A DNA stretch of 64,000 bases from Promethearchaeota archaeon (GTDB lineage: Archaea > Asgardarchaeota > Thorarchaeia > Thorarchaeales > Thorarchaeaceae), in NCBI GenBank assembly GCA_014728035.1, contig WJMJ01000071.1:1-64000 (forward strand), given 5' to 3'. A model generated the notes under the pieces. That model was not told where the DNA came from and did no database searches. It was given only the letters and a program-made list of their open reading frames with translations. The first letter of the stretch is position 1. Each line of letters begins with the position of its first letter. Position numbers and translations under genes: made by a program. Below, in pieces: positions 1,154 to 9,568 of the stretch.

Positions 1154-4100
1154 ATGAGCGGCAATTTATCGACTGAAACAGTCCCTATTTTGAAAACCAA
1201 TTTGGGACTTACAAAAACTGAAGCATCTGTTTTATATCCAATACTTGCTAGTGGGAATCTTACTGCAGAAGGAATCGCACTGCTTCTGGGAGAAAAAACC
1301 TCCAAGGTGAAATCCACCTTGAAGAAGTTAATTGACAAAGGGTATGTTGTTCAATTAGATGGAGTTATTCCTGTTTATCGTGCAATTCCGTTGGACACAA
1401 TGGTCAAGAGTTCCTTGGAAAAGTTATTGGAAGATTTCTCATCTTTACAAGAAACCTCTGAAGAAGTCATTACCCAACAGGAAGAGAATACAAGTAATCT
1501 TGCTCAAAACTTACTAGAAACTCAAAAGGATCGAGATGCGAAAGTTACAGGGATAATGGATGATTACGAAAAAGAAATGGTTACTACTATCCGCAATCAG
1601 GTTGATGAACTAACAAGTTCTGTTGGCAATATTCTTTCTTCCTTCGTAGAGATGTTGGAAACTAGTTTGAAGGAGATAGATACAAGATTAGATGATCGTT
1701 TGGGAGTTCTTTTGTCTGAATTACAAACATCTTTAGATGAGAGTCAAAAACAACTACATGAATCGACTGACGAATTTGCAAATGAGTTTGATGACTGGTT
1801 ATCTGATGAAACCACTACCATGTCCAGTACACTGGATGGCATTGTTGACAAAACCTCTGAATTAACAGAAAATATTCGTATTGCCGTAAACGATGCCTTA
1901 GCTCAATCTGAGGATGCCATTGATGCTGCTTCAAAAGAGATAATCCAAGCTGTAGTTGAGAAATCAACAGATATCTCAAAAGCCAATGTTGAACAAGTGA
2001 ATGAACTTCTTTCAAAATTAAAAGCTAATCTAAGTGAATTTGATAGTATGCTTGGAGAATCTTACCTTGCTGCAAAGGAATCACTAGATAACATGCTTGA
2101 AAGTGCTCGAGATATTCCTCGAGAGCAAGTAGAACATGTTCAACAAGAGATACAGACTGCAATAGATGCAACACAGTCAGTTATTAAAGATGTTGAATCT
2201 TGGAAAAAGGAAGTATCCGGGTTTATGGAAGTAGCAAATCAGTCTGTTACTGCTCAACTAGAACAGGTGTCAGATACTGATGACTCGTATCATGAGGTTA
2301 TTCGAACTTCTCTCAACTCATATTTTGATAAGACGAGTGCATTTCTGGGTGATGAATATACTCAATTGAAAACATTCGCTAAGTCAGTTAATTCTGACTT
2401 TGACGTTCATGTCGGTGAGATTAGAAATGCAGTTTTATTATTGTTGCAAAGTCAACTTGAAGCGGATGATAAACGAATAAAAAAAGATGGTGATACTCTA
2501 AATGCAGACATTGATGATTGGGCAGCCAGGAGCACATCCGAAATTGAAACAAAGTTGGAATCTGTGATTGAGGAGATTAGTCAAGTTCTTGATACGGAAT
2601 CAACGGAATTCAATTCTTTGGTCACCAATATGAATAGCAGATTAAAAACAGCATTCGACAGTATTATTTCTAAATCTTCCAGCCAAAATGAAGCAATACT
2701 TTCCGATGCAAAACTTGTATCTACTGAATTCGAATCTTCACTTGAAACTAAATTTACTGAGATTATCAACGATTTTGCTAAGACCACAAAAACCCAAGTT
2801 GATGTTACCAAGACTCTGTATCAGGAACTTGGCACCACTCTAAATGAAAGACTTGCTCAGAGTGTATCCACCCTTACTGGTCATGCGTCGAGAATACAAA
2901 AGGAAATTGACACAACGATTGAAAATCAGACAGGACGAATTGAACGTCTTGCTAAAGGTATTCAAGAAGAATTCCATGTCAAACTTGAAGAGATAACTAG
3001 GCAATTCATAACTCTGACACAAAGCACAGAATCTTCATTCAATGCGCTTATTTCTAGTCAGACATTAGAAGCAACGGATCTTATTGGTTCTGCTCACTCT
3101 GAATTCAGAAATGCCATCAAAACAGAGATTTCATCATTAGAAGCAGATTCGCTAAAACTCCAAGAAGAATATACAATGAAATTGCAAGGTCGTGTTGATG
3201 AGGTTGCAGAACATGCTGAAGAGATTCGAGAAACTCTCCAAACCGTAAGTTCTGAAAAACGTGAAGGAATTTTGTCCCTCATCAATACAGCTATTGAAAA
3301 TCTTGAAGCATCTATGAATACAACTGAAGAATCTTTGAGGGAAATGAGTACGGGCACGATAAGACAACTGGGAGAGAATCTGACTCAAGTTTCACGTGAA
3401 TTCAATGCATCAATTAATAGCAGCAGGAATACTGTTGTAGATCGAATAGGAAGTGCAAGAGATGAAGCTAAAACTTTCATCACGAAATCTTCTGGAGCTG
3501 TCAAAACAAAAGCAGAGTCATTTCTATCATCACAGAGCGATACTAAACAACGTGTTTTGGCTGAAACTAGCAAAAAACTTGATGCACTTTACAGCTCAAA
3601 AGCTAAAGTTTCTGCTGAACGCTTAGAGAAGTATCAGAGTTCCATTACTGAAGCAGAAACCAAGATAATAGAAGTTCGAAGTAAATCAAAAGAAGACATC
3701 ATAAAAGCTTTGGAAACACGCAAAAATGAAGTGTCTTTAGCCTTTGATGCTGCCTCTGTTTGGGTTGAATCTGCGGTATCGAATGTAGATTCATCTCTAT
3801 CTGCTTTAGGTGATAAGCTAGATAATGAACTTACACTTGTTCAGCAACAACTTACTAAAACTTCAGAAGAAGCAACTGATAACATCATTCAGAAGGGTGA
3901 TGAAACTATAGAAAAACTTGAGGCATTGAGCATTGGTCTATTTGACAAAACTGAATCCAAGCTCCGCTCGCAAGCAAATAATTTCGAATCGATAATGGAA
4001 ACAGCACTAGCAGAGGTTACCGAGTCAATCAGTAAGATTCCTGAACTAGAAGAATCAGGTATCGAAGAAGCTAGTCTTTCAATCAAGAAGAATACAACTG

Positions 4101-5035
4101 AAATACACGCTGAAGTGAATTCGGAATTGAATGGATATCTCCAAGAATACGCACTATCCTTAAAATCAGTTCATGAAGAAGTCACAAATCTTATTGACCG
4201 AACCATAACCAAATTGAAATCTAATTCTGGAGATCTCATTGATAAGACACGTCAAAGTGTAGTTGTGGCAAATCAACAGGCTTCTAGAAAGTTTGAATCA
4301 CTTGGTGTGGAATTGAAAACAGATGTAAGTACAAAATCCTATGAACTTATGGAATCTATTAGGGGTGATGTTGCAACTAAAAATATTGGATTGAATGATA
4401 CTGTTGCATCTGTGAACACTACTCTGACAGAGTCTACATCTGAACTCAGACAGACCAGCTCAGAAGTGTTTACTTCAGTAAGCATAGAACTCGACAAATC
4501 TGTAAGACGATGGGTCACAAATCTGGAAAAGCAATATACTGATTTTCAGAAAAATCTAGAAGAATCCTTTGAAGGGGTAAAATCGGTCACTGAGAAGTCA
4601 ATTGAGAGCTTGGAAGCAATTCAGAAAGCAAGCCAAGAACTTATTTCCCAACCTAGCAAAACGTGGTATCTAAAGGGTCAAGATGCAATCAGTGCACAAA
4701 TTATCGCATTAGCACAAGAGTCAGAAGATTCTATTGTAATTGCTTGTCCTAATCCTGAAAACTTGGATTTGAAGAAACTATCTAAGGTTACTAAGCCTCG
4801 TAGAAAGCTATTGATTGTACCTGCAAATGATGATGATGAACCAAGTGTCGAAGATTTACCCGGCTGGAGAGTAATATCTTCCAAGAATGCAATATTGATG
4901 GCGGTAGCCGATAACAGGGTTATACTTTTGGGTTCAAGTTCTGATGATGCTTTTGGAATTTTGTCAACGGATTCCTCCTATCTGGACTTGTATCATGATA
5001 TCCTTGGACCTCAACTGATACGCCCAACAAAATAG
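1154..5035 (+). CDS. giant TrmB-family protein: N-terminal wHTH, ~1100-aa helical repeat region, C-terminal TrmB effector-like domain
   Basis: N-term LGLTKTEASVLY...LKKLIDKGYV...VYRAIP fits TrmB HTH; C-term TWYLKGQDAISAQIIALAQESEDSIVIACP fits the TrmB middle/effector domain; Pro-poor amphipathic centre. Confidence 0.75.
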   Translation: MSGNLSTETVPILKTNLGLTKTEASVLYPILASGNLTAEGIALLLGEKTSKVKSTLKKLIDKGYVVQLDGVIPVYRAIPLDTMVKSSLEKLLEDFSSLQETSEEVITQQEENTSNLAQNLLETQKDRDAKVTGIMDDYEKEMVTTIRNQVDELTSSVGNILSSFVEMLETSLKEIDTRLDDRLGVLLSELQTSLDESQKQLHESTDEFANEFDDWLSDETTTMSSTLDGIVDKTSELTENIRIAVNDALAQSEDAIDAASKEIIQAVVEKSTDISKANVEQVNELLSKLKANLSEFDSMLGESYLAAKESLDNMLESARDIPREQVEHVQQEIQTAIDATQSVIKDVESWKKEVSGFMEVANQSVTAQLEQVSDTDDSYHEVIRTSLNSYFDKTSAFLGDEYTQLKTFAKSVNSDFDVHVGEIRNAVLLLLQSQLEADDKRIKKDGDTLNADIDDWAARSTSEIETKLESVIEEISQVLDTESTEFNSLVTNMNSRLKTAFDSIISKSSSQNEAILSDAKLVSTEFESSLETKFTEIINDFAKTTKTQVDVTKTLYQELGTTLNERLAQSVSTLTGHASRIQKEIDTTIENQTGRIERLAKGIQEEFHVKLEEITRQFITLTQSTESSFNALISSQTLEATDLIGSAHSEFRNAIKTEISSLEADSLKLQEEYTMKLQGRVDEVAEHAEEIRETLQTVSSEKREGILSLINTAIENLEASMNTTEESLREMSTGTIRQLGENLTQVSREFNASINSSRNTVVDRIGSARDEAKTFITKSSGAVKTKAESFLSSQSDTKQRVLAETSKKLDALYSSKAKVSAERLEKYQSSITEAETKIIEVRSKSKEDIIKALETRKNEVSLAFDAASVWVESAVSNVDSSLSALGDKLDNELTLVQQQLTKTSEEATDNIIQKGDETIEKLEALSIGLFDKTESKLRSQANNFESIMETALAEVTESISKIPELEESGIEEASLSIKKNTTEIHAEVNSELNGYLQEYALSLKSVHEEVTNLIDRTITKLKSNSGDLIDKTRQSVVVANQQASRKFESLGVELKTDVSTKSYELMESIRGDVATKNIGLNDTVASVNTTLTESTSELRQTSSEVFTSVSIELDKSVRRWVTNLEKQYTDFQKNLEESFEGVKSVTEKSIESLEAIQKASQELISQPSKTWYLKGQDAISAQIIALAQESEDSIVIACPNPENLDLKKLSKVTKPRRKLLIVPANDDDEPSVEDLPGWRVISSKNAILMAVADNRVILLGSSSDDAFGILSTDSSYLDLYHDILGPQLIRPTK

Positions 5036-5038
5036 AAT

Positions 5039-5503
5039 TTACAAACTAAGATAGTAGAGGATTGCATCTTCTTGTTCGTAGTAGTCCTCTATCCTTTCCT
5101 TTTTTTTCATTCCAATCTTTTCATATAGTTTTTGAGCTGACAAGTTACTCTCTCTTACTTCCAATACACAGAACAACATTTTACCAGCTCGCATCATATC
5201 TAGTGCATATCTCAGTAGTTTTTCTCCCCATCCTCGTCTGCGGTATTCCTCAGAAACCGCCAAATTCATGATATGTCCTTTTTTGGCAATCTTGTTTTCT
5301 TCCCATACAATATAACCTACTAGTTTGTGTTCGGACTCCAATACTCGCATCAATAATACGCGATGATTCTGAAATCTTATTTTTCCACCCCATGTAGCAA
5401 TAGCTTCAAAGATTGACTTGTTCCATGGAGTAGGAAAGTTTCGGCATTCTATTTCATATACCAGTTGAACATCTGATAGGACAATAGGCCGAATCACGCA
5501 CAA
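5039..5503 (-). CDS. rimI: RimI/Ard1-like N-acetyltransferase
   Basis: IECRNFPTPW, GHIMNLAVSEEYRRRGWG, LEVRESNLSAQKLYEKIG, YY...EDA motifs. Confidence 0.9.
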   Translation of the reverse strand: MCVIRPIVLSDVQLVYEIECRNFPTPWNKSIFEAIATWGGKIRFQNHRVLLMRVLESEHKLVGYIVWEENKIAKKGHIMNLAVSEEYRRRGWGEKLLRYALDMMRAGKMLFCVLEVRESNLSAQKLYEKIGMKKKERIEDYYEQEDAILYYLSL

Positions 5504-5531
5504 CTTGTATATCCTCGCAATATTCTATCTA

Positions 5532-5882
5532 TTACTCTGGAAGAACAGGGCTACCGCAAACTTGGCAAAATGAAGCATTAGTTGGAATTGCAGAACCGCA
5601 GTTATCACATTTTTTATCTGTTCTGAGATAGATGCTACCATCTTGAGTTGTTTTATGTGGATAATTACCAATTCGAGAAAAACCTCCGAGTAACAACCAA
5701 ACCATCAGACCAACCACCAAGAGAAAAACCCAAACTCCAATATCGCTACCACTCCCTATGAAAAAGAAAGGGAAAATAAAGTAGAAGGTTTCGAATTCTG
5801 TTACGTTTGACAGAAGTAGTATTGATAGTCCAATAAATACCAGAACCATTCCTACAATAATTTTATAGACCGGCTCTTTCAA
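5532..5882 (-). CDS. membrane protein with C-terminal zinc ribbon
   Basis: 2-3 hydrophobic segments then CDNCG...ASFCQVCG. Confidence 0.8.
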   Translation of the reverse strand: MKEPVYKIIVGMVLVFIGLSILLLSNVTEFETFYFIFPFFFIGSGSDIGVWVFLLVVGLMVWLLLGGFSRIGNYPHKTTQDGSIYLRTDKKCDNCGSAIPTNASFCQVCGSPVLPE

Positions 5883-5896
5883 TTAGTGAACTTCCC

Positions 5897-6241
5897 TTAG
5901 AGCATATCTCTTTCTCTCAACTGTGACACTATTTTTTCGTATCTTTCGTTGTCACTTATCATTAGATTGACTGCTTGTTCCTGAGAATGGGATCCAGGGA
6001 CTAATGAAACATGAATCTTCTCTTCTGGATATACTTCTGAGAGTCTATGGCGAATAAGAATTCCTATGAGGCCTCCCATTGGACAATATGGAACGGTTGG
6101 TTTGAATTGAACCTTGATACCATCATCAATTGAAATGAATTCTTTTTTCACAATTCCCATTTTTGGGTCTGTGATACTCACCGGATGTTCAGGGTCCATT
6201 ACAGGCTTTAATGCCTCAAAAACATCGTCAACTGTTGCCAT
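5897..6241 (-). CDS. DUF59 / MIP18 (FAM96/CIA2)-like Fe-S cluster assembly protein
   Basis: DPEHP, FKPTVPYCPMGGLIG, PGSHSQEQAVN motifs. Confidence 0.85.
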   Translation of the reverse strand: MATVDDVFEALKPVMDPEHPVSITDPKMGIVKKEFISIDDGIKVQFKPTVPYCPMGGLIGILIRHRLSEVYPEEKIHVSLVPGSHSQEQAVNLMISDNERYEKIVSQLRERDML

Positions 6242-6382
6242 TTATCTCGCCTGAGGAACCATTCGCTAAGTTGCACTTATTAATATGTAGTCTTGACAAA
6301 CCAATAAAGCACATAAGACATATCTATCAGTGTGATTCTAATAATTTAGAGTTAAACCTCTTACAAAATAGGAGAAAGTAAG

Positions 6383-6820
6383 ATGTCGCCAAATAAGGAT
6401 AGAAAAGGTCAGAGATTTCTGTTTAAGATCTCTTTGATGGGTCCTGATGAATCGCTCCTTGAAGAAGTTGTCCGAATTTTCAACAAAGACCTCGTATCAA
6501 TTGATGGCATAAGTATTGGGTCTGTAAAGCGAGAGAGTCATGGAGCTGATGTGAAGGCGGTTTTCATGTTTTCAAAGCACTCAGCATTGGATATCTTACT
6601 GACTTTAGCATATACTGGAGCACATGGGGCAATGATTGTTTTGGAATCTCCGAATCCTGAACTAGAATCTGAATATCGAAATAGAGTTCGGGAGAATATT
6701 GGTACAGTTCCATGTAGATTGCTTGTTTTAGATTCTCCTCTTGATAAGGAGGAGAGTAAGCGAATTATCGATGCTTTTGAGAATCTCGTAGAAGAGTTAC
6801 TTGAAGCTCGTAGTGTATAG
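6383..6820 (+). CDS. degenerate Rab/Ras-like small-GTPase-fold protein
   Basis: FLFKISLMG (beta1) and YTGAHGAMIV resemble Rab motifs; no GxxxxGKS, DxxG or NKxD. Confidence 0.55.
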   Translation: MSPNKDRKGQRFLFKISLMGPDESLLEEVVRIFNKDLVSIDGISIGSVKRESHGADVKAVFMFSKHSALDILLTLAYTGAHGAMIVLESPNPELESEYRNRVRENIGTVPCRLLVLDSPLDKEESKRIIDAFENLVEELLEARSV

Positions 6821-6825
6821 CAAAT

Positions 6826-7941
6826 ATGGCGGTGTGTAATGCAAAGGCTTTTCTCATAATTACACCTAGCTCTTTTCAGGTGTCACCATTGAGTTCGGAT
6901 AAGGACGAGAAATATTGGTTAGGTGTTCGTGACGCGTTAAGAATGGTTGATAGCTTTCTAAAGTGGTCACGACGCAATCCTGAACAAGCAAAATCTTTGG
7001 ATGATTTCATATCAGATGGTTTGATAGCTGCGGCAAAAAGATGTGAGAAGTGTCTCAGTGAGAAATTAGGTGTTGGTTTCAAAGACGGTTCAAAGTTTGA
7101 TGAAAAAGAAACATCTGATGAATTATTCGATTCTGATCCAGAATCCTCAGAATATTCTACTAGTCCCCCCTCTCGTGAATCACCCATAGAGCCAACCCAT
7201 GGCTCATCGTATTCAGAGGAGGATTATGAAGCTGAAGAATTTGAGATTCCAACTGAATCAAGAGAACCTATTGAGTCTGAAGTTTCAGTTGAGTCTGAAA
7301 CTGATGATATTGAACCAGTATCAGTTGAATCATTGGGTCGCTCTGAACAATCCGAAACTGACGATTATGCATTCAGTACACCAAGACATTTTGAGGAAGA
7401 TTTTGAACTAGTTGAACCAAGTCCGTTAGGCGTAGAATCACTTCGTTCTGAATCCGAACTGCCTCCTATTCCTTCAACAAAAGAGGAAATAGATGATACA
7501 ATGAGTGAAGATATTCCTTCAGCTCGATTTGAACGTTCACCTGTTCCTGAAAGCCGAACACCTTCTCCGGAAATCTCTGAACGTAGTGTGTCCTCAGAAA
7601 CGGAATCCCCATCGAGACCATCAGAAGGACCAGAATTCACATGGCGTGAATATGAAGAAACCATTGCACCCTCCGAAACTGAAGAATCAATTGAATCTTC
7701 AGAATCAGAAGATGAAGAATTAGAAGATGAAGAGCTGGAATCAAAATCGACACGTGTCTGGAGTCCTTATGATGAACCTTCTATGCCGGATGAAAAAACC
7801 GAGGAATCTGATGAGGATGAGACTGAAGAAGAAACAAAATCAGAGGAAAAAGCTAGTCCCCCACCACCACCACCGCCGCCAGATGATCAAAGTGATGAGG
7901 AACGAAAGAGAAGGGCGAAGCGATTATTCTTTGGAGCTTGA
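6826..7941 (+). CDS. acidic low-complexity protein with poly-Pro tract and basic C-terminus
   Basis: short helical N-domain, E/S/P/D-rich region, P8 tract, ends EERKRRAKRLFFGA; true start may be GTG/TTG near 6880-6889. Confidence 0.75.
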   Translation: MAVCNAKAFLIITPSSFQVSPLSSDKDEKYWLGVRDALRMVDSFLKWSRRNPEQAKSLDDFISDGLIAAAKRCEKCLSEKLGVGFKDGSKFDEKETSDELFDSDPESSEYSTSPPSRESPIEPTHGSSYSEEDYEAEEFEIPTESREPIESEVSVESETDDIEPVSVESLGRSEQSETDDYAFSTPRHFEEDFELVEPSPLGVESLRSESELPPIPSTKEEIDDTMSEDIPSARFERSPVPESRTPSPEISERSVSSETESPSRPSEGPEFTWREYEETIAPSETEESIESSESEDEELEDEELESKSTRVWSPYDEPSMPDEKTEESDEDETEEETKSEEKASPPPPPPPPDDQSDEERKRRAKRLFFGA

Positions 7942-8691
7942 AGCTCCACAGACTTCGCAGTTCTCATTTTTTTGAATCTCGAAAATGTCAAACGCAATAG
8001 AGTTAATATCAATAGATAATAGTTTGTTGAAGAGATTTGGCTTCTTTTTTGTGGCTATCAATACTGCTTCTCGTACCTGAATACTTGTAACTATTGGAAG
8101 TATTTCAGGAGTTATCCCTATAGAAGCAGCGGTCATTTCTGAATTATCTTTTGCATCACCCATTACGCAGTTCAGGCAGCCAGTTGAGCAAGGTAGAAAT
8201 GTTGTTGTATTAGCATAATATTCAACAGCACCTGCAAAGACATAGGGCTTTTTCTTTTCTATACTATATTCATTGACTATTCTTCTAGCCTTGAATGAAT
8301 CAAGTCCATCTATGATGATATCTACATCTCTTAGAATATCTGTAATGTTGTTGGATTGAATTGCCACATCGTAAGTTTCTATCTCAACTTGTGGATTCAA
8401 TTTCTGTAGATTGATTGAGGCAGCTTCAACCTTTTTTTTCCCCACATCTTCAGTATTGAAAAGTAACTGCCGTTGAATATTTGAAAGTTCAACTATATCC
8501 GGATCCACAAGAATCAATTTTTTGAAACCCATTGCTGCAAGAAGTCTTGATGATGAACTACCTAATCCTCCAACACCAATAACTCCAATATTTGTACTAT
8601 TTATGAGCTCCATATCTTCTTCATGGACATCAGTCAGGCGCAGAAATCGTGAATATCGATCTTTTTGTTCATCTGATAGCGGCATATCCAT
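7924..8691 (-). CDS. ThiF/MoeB/HesA family E1-like adenylyltransferase
   Basis: RYSR, GVGGLGS, DPDIVELSNIQRQLLF, GKKKVE, CLNC and CEVC Zn motifs. Confidence 0.9.
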   Translation of the reverse strand: MDMPLSDEQKDRYSRFLRLTDVHEEDMELINSTNIGVIGVGGLGSSSSRLLAAMGFKKLILVDPDIVELSNIQRQLLFNTEDVGKKKVEAASINLQKLNPQVEIETYDVAIQSNNITDILRDVDIIIDGLDSFKARRIVNEYSIEKKKPYVFAGAVEYYANTTTFLPCSTGCLNCVMGDAKDNSEMTAASIGITPEILPIVTSIQVREAVLIATKKKPNLFNKLLSIDINSIAFDIFEIQKNENCEVCGASSSKE

Positions 8692-8746
8692 CCTTTCTTA
8701 ATAGATATAGAGTGTGACTTAAAGCCTTGGAAATTTTCTGATACTC

Positions 8747-9568
8747 ATGGATTTCACATCAAAAGTTGCGGTTGCTGTAGATAGAACTCCTAAGGGTGCA
8801 CTACTTACAGCATTAACAACACTAAATATGCCACTTCATCTGGAATATGAAGTTGAACGCATTATCATAAAACCCTCAATATACAATCCAGCGTATCCTG
8901 GAAATACTAACATCGAATTGGTAGAAGGTCTTGTAAGTATGTTTCGAAATACTGGAAGGGTCTATATTGTTGAAAGTGATAATCCTGTTAGAACCGCTGA
9001 GGAAGCATTTGAAGACTGTGGATATCATCAATTGCAAGAAATTGGTGCAAAACTGGTAAACCTTTCAAAAGAACCATGTCATTCAATAGAGATGCCAGGT
9101 CATTTTTTCAAAGAACGAGAGATGCCAGAAATTCTCTCAGGAAATATTCTACAAGTAAATGTGGCAACACTTAAACAAGAATCCGATAAAAGAATCATGG
9201 GGGCAAGTATCAAGAATTTGTTTGGGTTTTTACCTGAGTTGGATAAATCTGTATATCATGAAAATATTCATGATGTATTAGTTGATTTACTGATAACATA
9301 CCCACCAACTCTTACTATCCTCGACTTAACAGAACTTGTCACTGGGCCACGTAGTCAAAAAATCACAAAACGGACAAAAGGTGTAGTTGTTAGTCAGGAT
9401 TCAGTGGCAATTGATGCATTTGGTGCACATCTTATTGGTATCGATCCCATGACGGTACCACATATTGAATTAGCGTATAATCTTGGATTAGGAGAAGCTC
9501 TTCTTGACAGAATACAAGTCCTTGGCACTGAACATCAGAAAAAGCTGATAGAAATGATTCAATACTAA
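8747..9568 (+). CDS. DUF362 family protein
   Basis: IIIKPS, IVESD, ASIKNLFG, DSVAIDA, IDPMTVPHI...GLG pattern. Confidence 0.8.
   Translation: MDFTSKVAVAVDRTPKGALLTALTTLNMPLHLEYEVERIIIKPSIYNPAYPGNTNIELVEGLVSMFRNTGRVYIVESDNPVRTAEEAFEDCGYHQLQEIGAKLVNLSKEPCHSIEMPGHFFKEREMPEILSGNILQVNVATLKQESDKRIMGASIKNLFGFLPELDKSVYHENIHDVLVDLLITYPPTLTILDLTELVTGPRSQKITKRTKGVVVSQDSVAIDAFGAHLIGIDPMTVPHIELAYNLGLGEALLDRIQVLGTEHQKKLIEMIQY

Follow-up and report, generated by a model that had tools for sequence, protein, structure and literature searches.

Asgard archaea are the closest prokaryotic relatives of eukaryotes. The pseudoGTPases that have been described, such as CENP-M, AAGAB, and domains of p190RhoGAP, have been viewed as a eukaryotic reuse of dead switches as binding modules. 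The domains that bind Rabs are usually helical hairpins or coiled coils, for example in the pairs Rab7-RILP and Rab4-Rabenosyn-5. Among the live proteins, Thor-Rab (PDB 7EZB) binds GDP/GTP and hydrolyses GTP (PMC10933270). CENP-M, a pseudo-GTPase of the kinetochore, has lost the α1-β2 loop and strand β2, that is, switch I (PMC4080450). The N-terminal domain of AAGAB/Irc6 is a class i pseudoGTPase, a class without nucleotide binding, and serves as a protein-binding module (PMC12490416).

A literature search revealed no paper connecting pseudoGTPases with Asgard archaea, and none on the protein family described here. The family was encountered on a stretch of 64,000 nt from a member of the Thorarchaeaceae (positions 1 to 64,000 of contig WJMJ01000071.1, hereafter the window). 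A first-pass annotation had placed an open reading frame of 145 codons for amino acids at 6383–6820, and it was found exactly there: the gene at 6383..6820 (+ strand, stop codon included) encodes a Rab-like pseudoGTPase of 145 aa, here called pG, as judged from the open reading frame, the orthologs, the AlphaFold2 model, and the matches to Rabs. It is followed by the gene of an acidic protein with a long disordered region, here called the partner.

Like the Asgard and eukaryotic Rabs (Rab23, Rab8, Rab11/Ypt32), pG is predicted to have the G fold from β1 to β5 plus the last helix (Z 14–15.4). Unlike the Rabs, it lacks G1–G4, its P-loop is four residues shorter, the helix-strand unit with G5 is missing, and its length is 145 aa instead of about 180–200 aa. 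In contrast to Thor-Rab, it is predicted neither to bind nor to hydrolyse GTP. CENP-M resembles the predicted pG in that it is a small G-fold protein of its own, related to Rabs, with five strands in its sheet and without the GTP signatures (PMC4080450). CENP-M works as a structural subunit of a protein complex, and a subunit role is also proposed for pG. However, pG keeps the β2-β3 hairpin and has lost four P-loop residues and α4-β6, and CENP-M is found only in eukaryotes, whereas pG is archaeal. AAGAB consists of a G-like domain and a non-globular/helical C-terminal region, like pG and its partner taken together (PMC12490416). In AAGAB, however, domain and tail form one polypeptide that chaperones its target, AP1/AP2 sigma, whereas pG and the disordered arm are encoded by separate genes and no adaptin-like target is known for pG.

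pG is an archaeal version of an already known kind of protein, the pseudoGTPase. We consider it rather probable that it is a Rab-derived pseudoGTPase of the class i type that acts as a nucleotide-independent binding subunit, probably of the downstream partner. The family would show that Asgard archaea, which are rich in live Rab-like GTPases, also reused dead switches. It is under strong selection, and its gene is constantly paired with that of a disordered protein of eukaryotic style (polyproline, short linear motifs). Through this pair, scaffolding without GTP could become accessible for the first time in the cell biology of Asgard archaea.

Loss of the nucleotide-binding elements

The pG gene starts with an ATG that is preceded, at a distance of 8–12 nt, by the motif GGAG. 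The closest database protein is a hypothetical protein from a Candidatus Thorarchaeota MAG (76% identity), the one close homolog retrieved by a word-index protein search that was limited to similar lengths. In Pfam, no match was found for the protein of the window at E ≤ 1, no Ras match for any of the 20 orthologs at E ≤ 10, and no meaningful family for the orthologs. pG does not pass the curated threshold of PF00071, and none of the 38 matches to PF00071 in its genome is pG. An Rfam search of positions 5000–9000 also found nothing.

The first-pass annotation had recognized several segments of the protein as Rab-like, and each of them recurred at the corresponding position of the AlphaFold2 (AF2) model or of the profile alignments (hhalign). 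The protein begins with an N-terminal tail (residues 1–10; 6383..6412) that is predicted to be disordered (pLDDT 57); in the 20 orthologs, this tail comprises 9–25 residues and is mostly rich in Lys/Arg (2–14 K+R, 0–3 D+E). The following segment (residues 11–23; 6413..6451), delimited by hhalign and by conservation, contains β1 and the P-loop remnant G-P-D-E. The string RFLFKISLMG, which had been read as Rab β1, coincides with β1 at residues 11–19 (AF2, hhalign). At the P-loop position, hhalign aligns G-P-D-E, followed by a gap of four residues, with GxxxxGK[ST], so that neither the Lys nor the Ser/Thr is present. G20 and P21 are invariant among the 20 orthologs, and D23 is conserved in at least 90% of them.

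The switch-I-like loop and the β2-β3 hairpin occupy residues 37–64 (6491..6574), as indicated by conservation, AF2, and hhalign. The hairpin strands comprise residues 43–52 and 55–64 (AF2, hhalign), in agreement with the β2-β3 spacing that had been noted before. The column of the Mg-binding switch-I Thr of G2 contains the hydrophobic residue I40 (hhalign), and D41, G42, I43, and I45 are invariant. The remnant of G3/switch II (residues 61–73; 6563..6601), in which a conserved A-L-D-x-L-L comes after the DxxGQ positions, was located from hhalign columns and conservation. The position of DxxG reads F-x-S-K in pG, with the family consensus M-S-P-K; the columns of D, G, and Q in DxxGQ are occupied by F63, K65, and H66 in pG and by S, K, and H in the family (consensus M-S-P-K-H).

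A Rab-type block of YxGAxG and β4 is retained (residues 77–86; 6611..6640; hhalign versus the Rab-like proteins of the same genome). It is the YTGAHGAMIV that had been likened to the Rab block, and it aligns with YYRGA..LVYD of these proteins. G79 and A80 of the block are invariant, and the F-K-I motif of β1 is also kept. Helix α3 (residues 92–105; 6656..6697) has a conserved face formed by E95, Y98, R99, N100, and R103 (conservation, AF2). After β5 follow the loop at the former G4 site, in which no [NT]KxD was found, and a single long last helix (residues 122–144, AF2 secondary structure; loop and helix, 6728..6814), which is the previously reported C-terminal helix.

With a single helix after β5, strand β6 and the SAK loop of G5 are gone relative to Rab. 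The end of the pG model aligns near residue 175 of Rab23 and Rab8, and therefore the last helix is regarded as the equivalent of α5. According to the model, the unit of α4 and β6 with the G5 loop would be the piece that was deleted.

All five nucleotide-contacting elements of pG are gone or replaced. This extends the earlier description of a P-loop reading GPDESLL and of absent DxxG and NKxD, which was correct: G1, G3, and G4 are missing both in the hhalign comparison and in the alignment of the family. The loss of G1–G5 allows the strong prediction that pG binds neither GTP nor GDP and hydrolyses no GTP. Since pG has none of the nucleotide motifs, it would be wrong to classify it as a GTPase.

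Predicted fold and relationship to Rabs

The structure of pG was predicted with AlphaFold2 from an alignment of the 20 orthologs (mean pLDDT 80.6, pTM 0.76). The model consists of five main strands and four helices (AF2 secondary structure) in the order β1, α1, β2, β3, α2, β4, α3, β5, and one long last helix. A Foldseek search against the PDB yielded at least 500 matches at E ≤ 0.001. All of the listed matches are Rab or Rho small GTPases, and the best are Rabs (E 3e-7, TM 0.66–0.72). In a VIA-align search that was exhaustive over 48,161 chains, Rab23 ranked first (Z 15.4, rmsd 2.5, 135 aligned residues), and seven of the eight top entries were Rabs; in a second look, the best 50 matches were all Rabs, with Z from 14.1 to 15.4. 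The structure neighbours of pG in the ESM Atlas belong to the Ras/Rab families. These results support a model in which pG adopts a G-domain fold with an antiparallel β2-β3 hairpin and has the Rabs as its nearest neighbours. The structure prediction and Foldseek search that had been suggested as a check on the first-pass annotation thus gave a predicted G domain, again with Rabs nearest.

The similarity to Rabs was also found at the level of sequence profiles. With a profile built from the pG orthologs (A1), 13 matches were obtained among the PDB sequences, 11 of which are Rabs (Rab23, Ypt32, Ypt31, and Rab5), including the top eight; the best match is Rab23 (E 1e-3). An hhalign comparison of A1 with 11 canonical Rab-like GTPases of the same genome gave a probability of 93% and E 3.5e-7 over a region spanning β1 to β5. 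A1 also matches motif-intact, live Rab-like GTPases of another Asgard family (E about 1e-7 per genome). The resemblance between pG and Rabs exceeds chance.

Distribution and conservation of the family

Of the family, 27 members were examined, namely 20 orthologs from Thorarchaeaceae, one ortholog from a sister family (genome G037), and six paralogs from a third family, designated f16. The shortened loop G-P-[DN]-[DE] and the absence of DxxG and NKxD are common to all 27 members from these three Asgard families, and the representatives of the pG clusters have the same loop shortening and the same motif losses. Orthologs with intact G1/G3/G4 motifs had been named as the finding that would mark pG as a decaying copy; such motifs are intact in none of the 27 members, and pG is not such a copy. 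In a maximum-likelihood (ML) tree with 15 live Rab-like proteins, all 27 pG sequences group together (100/99), separate from the live proteins; a long branch leads to them, and the tree gives it no definite point of attachment among the Rabs. The simplest reading of these sequence comparisons would be a single, ancient loss of the motifs.

Overall, the family is rare, with 11 clusters among 1.84 billion representatives in an exhaustive search. pG is present as a single copy in 33 of 36 genomes of the same family and in 65 of 76 genomes of a larger sample of Thorarchaeaceae. The 20 orthologs, which are 41–76% identical, share 19 invariant columns, and dN/dS ranges from 0.04 to 0.18 in closely related pairs. 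Because these values reflect purifying selection, decay of pG is ruled out; judged from the sequences, pG is kept by selection as a functional protein.

Conservation is not uniform along the protein. It peaks in β1, the P-loop remnant, the switch II remnant, and α3, with the segment of β1 and the P-loop remnant (residues 11–23) being the most conserved part, and it is lowest in the loop at the former G4 site, the last helix, and the N-terminal tail. From this pattern, we infer that the formerly nucleotide-proximal face was remodelled into a conserved, putative protein-binding surface.

In f16, pG occurs as two tandem paralogs (147 and 148 aa; locus L036, 1765–2910; L042, 3478–4624; L043, 3029–4176), and in both, the P-loop is shortened as in the other members. 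According to the ML tree, the duplication is older than the split of the three f16 genomes. The second of the two paralogs itself has a basic-aromatic C-terminal tail, and no hairpin partner was detected in the f16 genomes.

The partner protein

The partner gene (6826..7941, + strand) encodes 371 aa when read from the ATG, as delimited by the open reading frame and by ortholog comparison. Alternative start codons are a GTG at 6880 and a TTG at 6889. The stored gene call has 350 aa, and together with the orthologs it suggests that one of these two codons is the true start. The distance between the two genes is 5 nt from the ATG and 59–68 nt from the GTG or the TTG. The partner has a pI of 4.15, contains 28% D+E, and includes an acidic disordered region of about 270 aa.

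The one confidently folded domain of the partner in the AF2 model is a helical hairpin of about 55 residues (residues 24–81, pLDDT about 90; 6895..7068), which has many invariant residues. The database contains 240 relatives of the partner, all annotated as hypothetical and none with a Pfam domain, and the labels of these relatives are Thorarchaeota almost throughout. Pfam gave no meaningful family for the partner itself. A structure search with the partner model returned generic helical hairpins only (Z ≤ 6.5); the match of the hairpin to RILP (Z 5.1) is tied with those to many unrelated hairpins. A search of the ESM Atlas with the hairpin gave no usable match.

Within the acidic region, three short motifs stand out in the ortholog consensus and its near-invariant columns, namely D-F..D-F-E-L..E-P (7384–7428), W-S-P-Y-D-E-P (7759–7779), and F-T-W..Y-E (7636–7659), the last of which AF2 predicts to contain a short helix (residues 273–280). 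They are followed by a tract of eight prolines (Pro8; 7858–7881), which is invariant or near-invariant in 18 orthologs, and by an Arg-rich C-terminal helix that ends in R-L-F-F-G-A (7897–7938) and is near-invariant in the same number of orthologs. In the AF2 model, this helix comprises residues 357–369 (pLDDT 75–83). The tail motif was found nowhere else in the genome.

The membrane-targeting sequence at the C-terminus of E. coli MinD is KGFLKRLFGG (PMC5471200). The C-terminus of the partner, a basic helix followed by L-F-F-G and one further residue, resembles the K-R-L-F-G-G of MinD in composition and position, but it is far more basic and less hydrophobic, with a mean hydrophobicity of −0.66 versus 0.04 and a hydrophobic moment of 0.37 versus 0.45. 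By analogy, a membrane anchor would be a lead only, and a peptide-docking role is equally possible. The PIP-box, HbYX, and MIM1 motifs were also considered for the tail and rejected, as judged by eye, since their consensus motifs call for another spacing of hydrophobic residues.

Proline tracts of 6–8 residues are also present elsewhere in the genome (G000, contigs C25, C27, and C37:~120470), in a 131-aa open reading frame, a 679-aa Ser-rich protein, and a 928-aa protein encoded on the contig of the window. These proteins are possible co-clients of a polyproline reader. A search for profilin (PF00235) in the same genome gave no match, but the controls gave none either.

Pairing of the two genes

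In each of the 20 loci, the partner gene lies directly 3′ of pG and has the same orientation. In the first sample, the coordinates show this arrangement in each of the 34 genomes that contain either gene, and both are missing from the same three genomes of the family. In the sister-family genome G037, the two genes adjoin but point away from each other; with 156 aa, the partner is short there, yet the hairpin and the basic L-F-F tail are kept. Taken as a comparison of genomes, this is good evidence that pG and the partner constitute a functional unit. Part of the adjacency is general synteny, because the synteny with G037 extends to the wider neighborhood, which includes the genes for a ThiF-like protein, a GNAT protein, a Zn-ribbon membrane protein, and a giant coiled-coil protein.

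The arrangement fits co-transcription of the two genes, with a 5-nt gap, no terminator-like site between the genes, and invariant adjacency. A scan for promoters and terminators remained at chance level, with bacterial-type models that are ill-suited to archaea. No fused pG-partner protein was found in a search for longer homologs, which is weak evidence.

A further family, f12, in which no pG was detected, also has hairpin proteins (L033, 1383–3592, in genome G057; L034, 1360–3500, in genome G047). Their linker is rich in Pro/Glu, and their basic tail ends in three Phe residues. Each module can therefore exist alone, since the pG paralogs of f16 occur without the partner and the hairpin proteins of f12 without pG. 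The hairpin genes of f12 are convergent to a cluster that encodes an MglA-like GTPase, in which both P-loop and NKxD are intact, as well as a thioredoxin and a protein of the Roadblock/LC7 type. This GTPase was considered as a live counterpart of pG and rejected, as it gave no match to A1.

A CxxC motif (partner residues 73–76; nt 7042–7053) lies inside the second helix of the hairpin and is invariant; it is kept in the hairpin proteins of f12 and lost in G037 and in G041. The two cysteines may form a redox pair or contribute one half of a metal site.

A probable fixed binding module and its alternatives

pG is most likely a fixed binding module and not a switch, because it has the shape of a Rab without the parts that hold GTP and is always paired with a disordered acidic protein. 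In the mechanism that we propose, an Asgard Rab-like GTPase would have shed four P-loop residues, including the phosphate-binding Lys and Ser/Thr, and further the switch-I Thr, DxxGQ, NKxD, and the helix-strand unit with the G5 loop, with a five-stranded minimal G-domain core being left over. The old nucleotide-side face (β1/P-loop remnant, switch II, and α3) would now be a fixed protein-binding surface. Its likeliest ligand would be the helical hairpin of the downstream protein, and the pair would correspond to a Rab-effector complex frozen in one state. pG and the hairpin partner do resemble Rab-effector pairs in shape. In trans, the partner would contribute an extended acidic arm that bears short docking motifs, the Pro8 tract, and the basic-aromatic C-terminal helix, by which the complex could be tethered to a membrane or a further protein. 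Both the physical binding of pG to the partner and the role of the tail are thus predictions of the model.

A more far-reaching version, which we regard as unlikely, is that pG and the partner form an Asgard-specific peripheral-membrane scaffold. The frozen Rab-effector pair, with the acidic arm, the polyproline tract, and the basic-aromatic anchor as the equivalent, in trans, of a very long hypervariable tail, would then recruit cytoskeletal or membrane-remodelling factors to the membrane without a GTP cycle; a polyproline reader such as profilin would be an example of a recruited factor. The basic-aromatic tail that one f16 paralog carries itself, in genomes in which the partner is missing, gives a hint of such a membrane scaffold. 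If true, adaptor and nucleation-promoting architectures of eukaryotes would have a prokaryotic forerunner in this pair.

The main rival reading, conceivable albeit doubtful, is that pG acts independently of the partner. It would permanently imitate a Rab without nucleotide and so sequester or scaffold effectors of live Rabs or their regulators (GEF-like TRAPP, longin, or Roadblock proteins). Targets for such a mimic would be abundant, with at least 36 PF00071 matches above the cut-off in the genome. Several of the very top structural neighbours of pG are nucleotide-free Rab:GEF complexes (Rab23-Fuzzy/Inturned, Rab8-Rabin8, Sec4-Sec2, Rab11-SH3BP5, Ypt7-Mon1/Ccz1, and Ypt32-TRAPPII), the Z values of which are tied with those of other Rabs. 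GEFs contact the P-loop/switch II/α3 region of Rabs, and it is this region that forms the conserved face of pG. The f16 paralogs, which occur without a partner, would also be in line with an independent function. However, genes of the GEF, GAP, Roadblock, or longin type are not linked with pG in Thorarchaeaceae, and the strict co-occurrence, shared absence, and adjacency point to the hairpin protein as the primary partner of pG.

The fact that the remnants of the P-loop and of switch II are the best-conserved parts of pG would also be expected of a ligand site. Accordingly worded, pG would be a sensor and not an inert scaffold, with a remodelled pocket (for example, the acidic P-loop remnant, Ser/His of the former switch II, and Asp70) that holds a small ligand or a metal. 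We consider this quite improbable, as the loop is four residues short and acidic, the guanine-binding walls (NKxD, β6, and the SAK loop) are gone, and no known ligand-binding motif was found by Pfam. That pG is a decaying or mis-called Rab copy, or an α/β fold unrelated to GTPases, as the blindness of Pfam to 20 of 20 members might suggest, is highly improbable and already contradicted by the data, namely by the low dN/dS, the single-copy conservation through three Asgard families, the profile-profile homology to Rabs (hhalign), the antiparallel β2-β3 hairpin, and structural match lists composed entirely of GTPases.

Genomic neighborhood

Upstream of pG, the window contains a gene for a 1293-aa protein (1154–5035, + strand). 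At its N-terminus, this protein has a winged helix of the TrmB type (PF01978, E 3e-10), and the next 1100 aa or so are amphipathic helical repeats like those of apolipoproteins (PF01442, eight stretches). A long coiled-coil protein is also encoded in the syntenic block of G037 (L037, 4515–6848). Next come the genes for a GNAT acetyltransferase (5039–5503, − strand) and for a small membrane protein that has a zinc ribbon at its C-terminus (5532–5882, − strand). Both of these genes also flank pG in G037 (L037, 3747–4512), and the block is therefore syntenic across families.

The gene immediately upstream of pG (5897–6241, − strand), which is divergent from it, encodes a protein of the FeS_assembly_P/DUF59 type (PF01883, E 3e-7), and the intergenic region between the two genes comprises 141 nt. 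Homologs of this protein (56–84% identity) are encoded within the 1.5-kb flank of 10 of 19 ortholog loci. On the other side, the partner gene meets a convergent gene for a ThiF/E1-like protein (7924–8691, − strand; PF00899, E 3e-63), with an overlap of 18 nt between the two 3′ ends. A ThiF-like gene adjoins the locus in G037, too (L037, 1710–2750).
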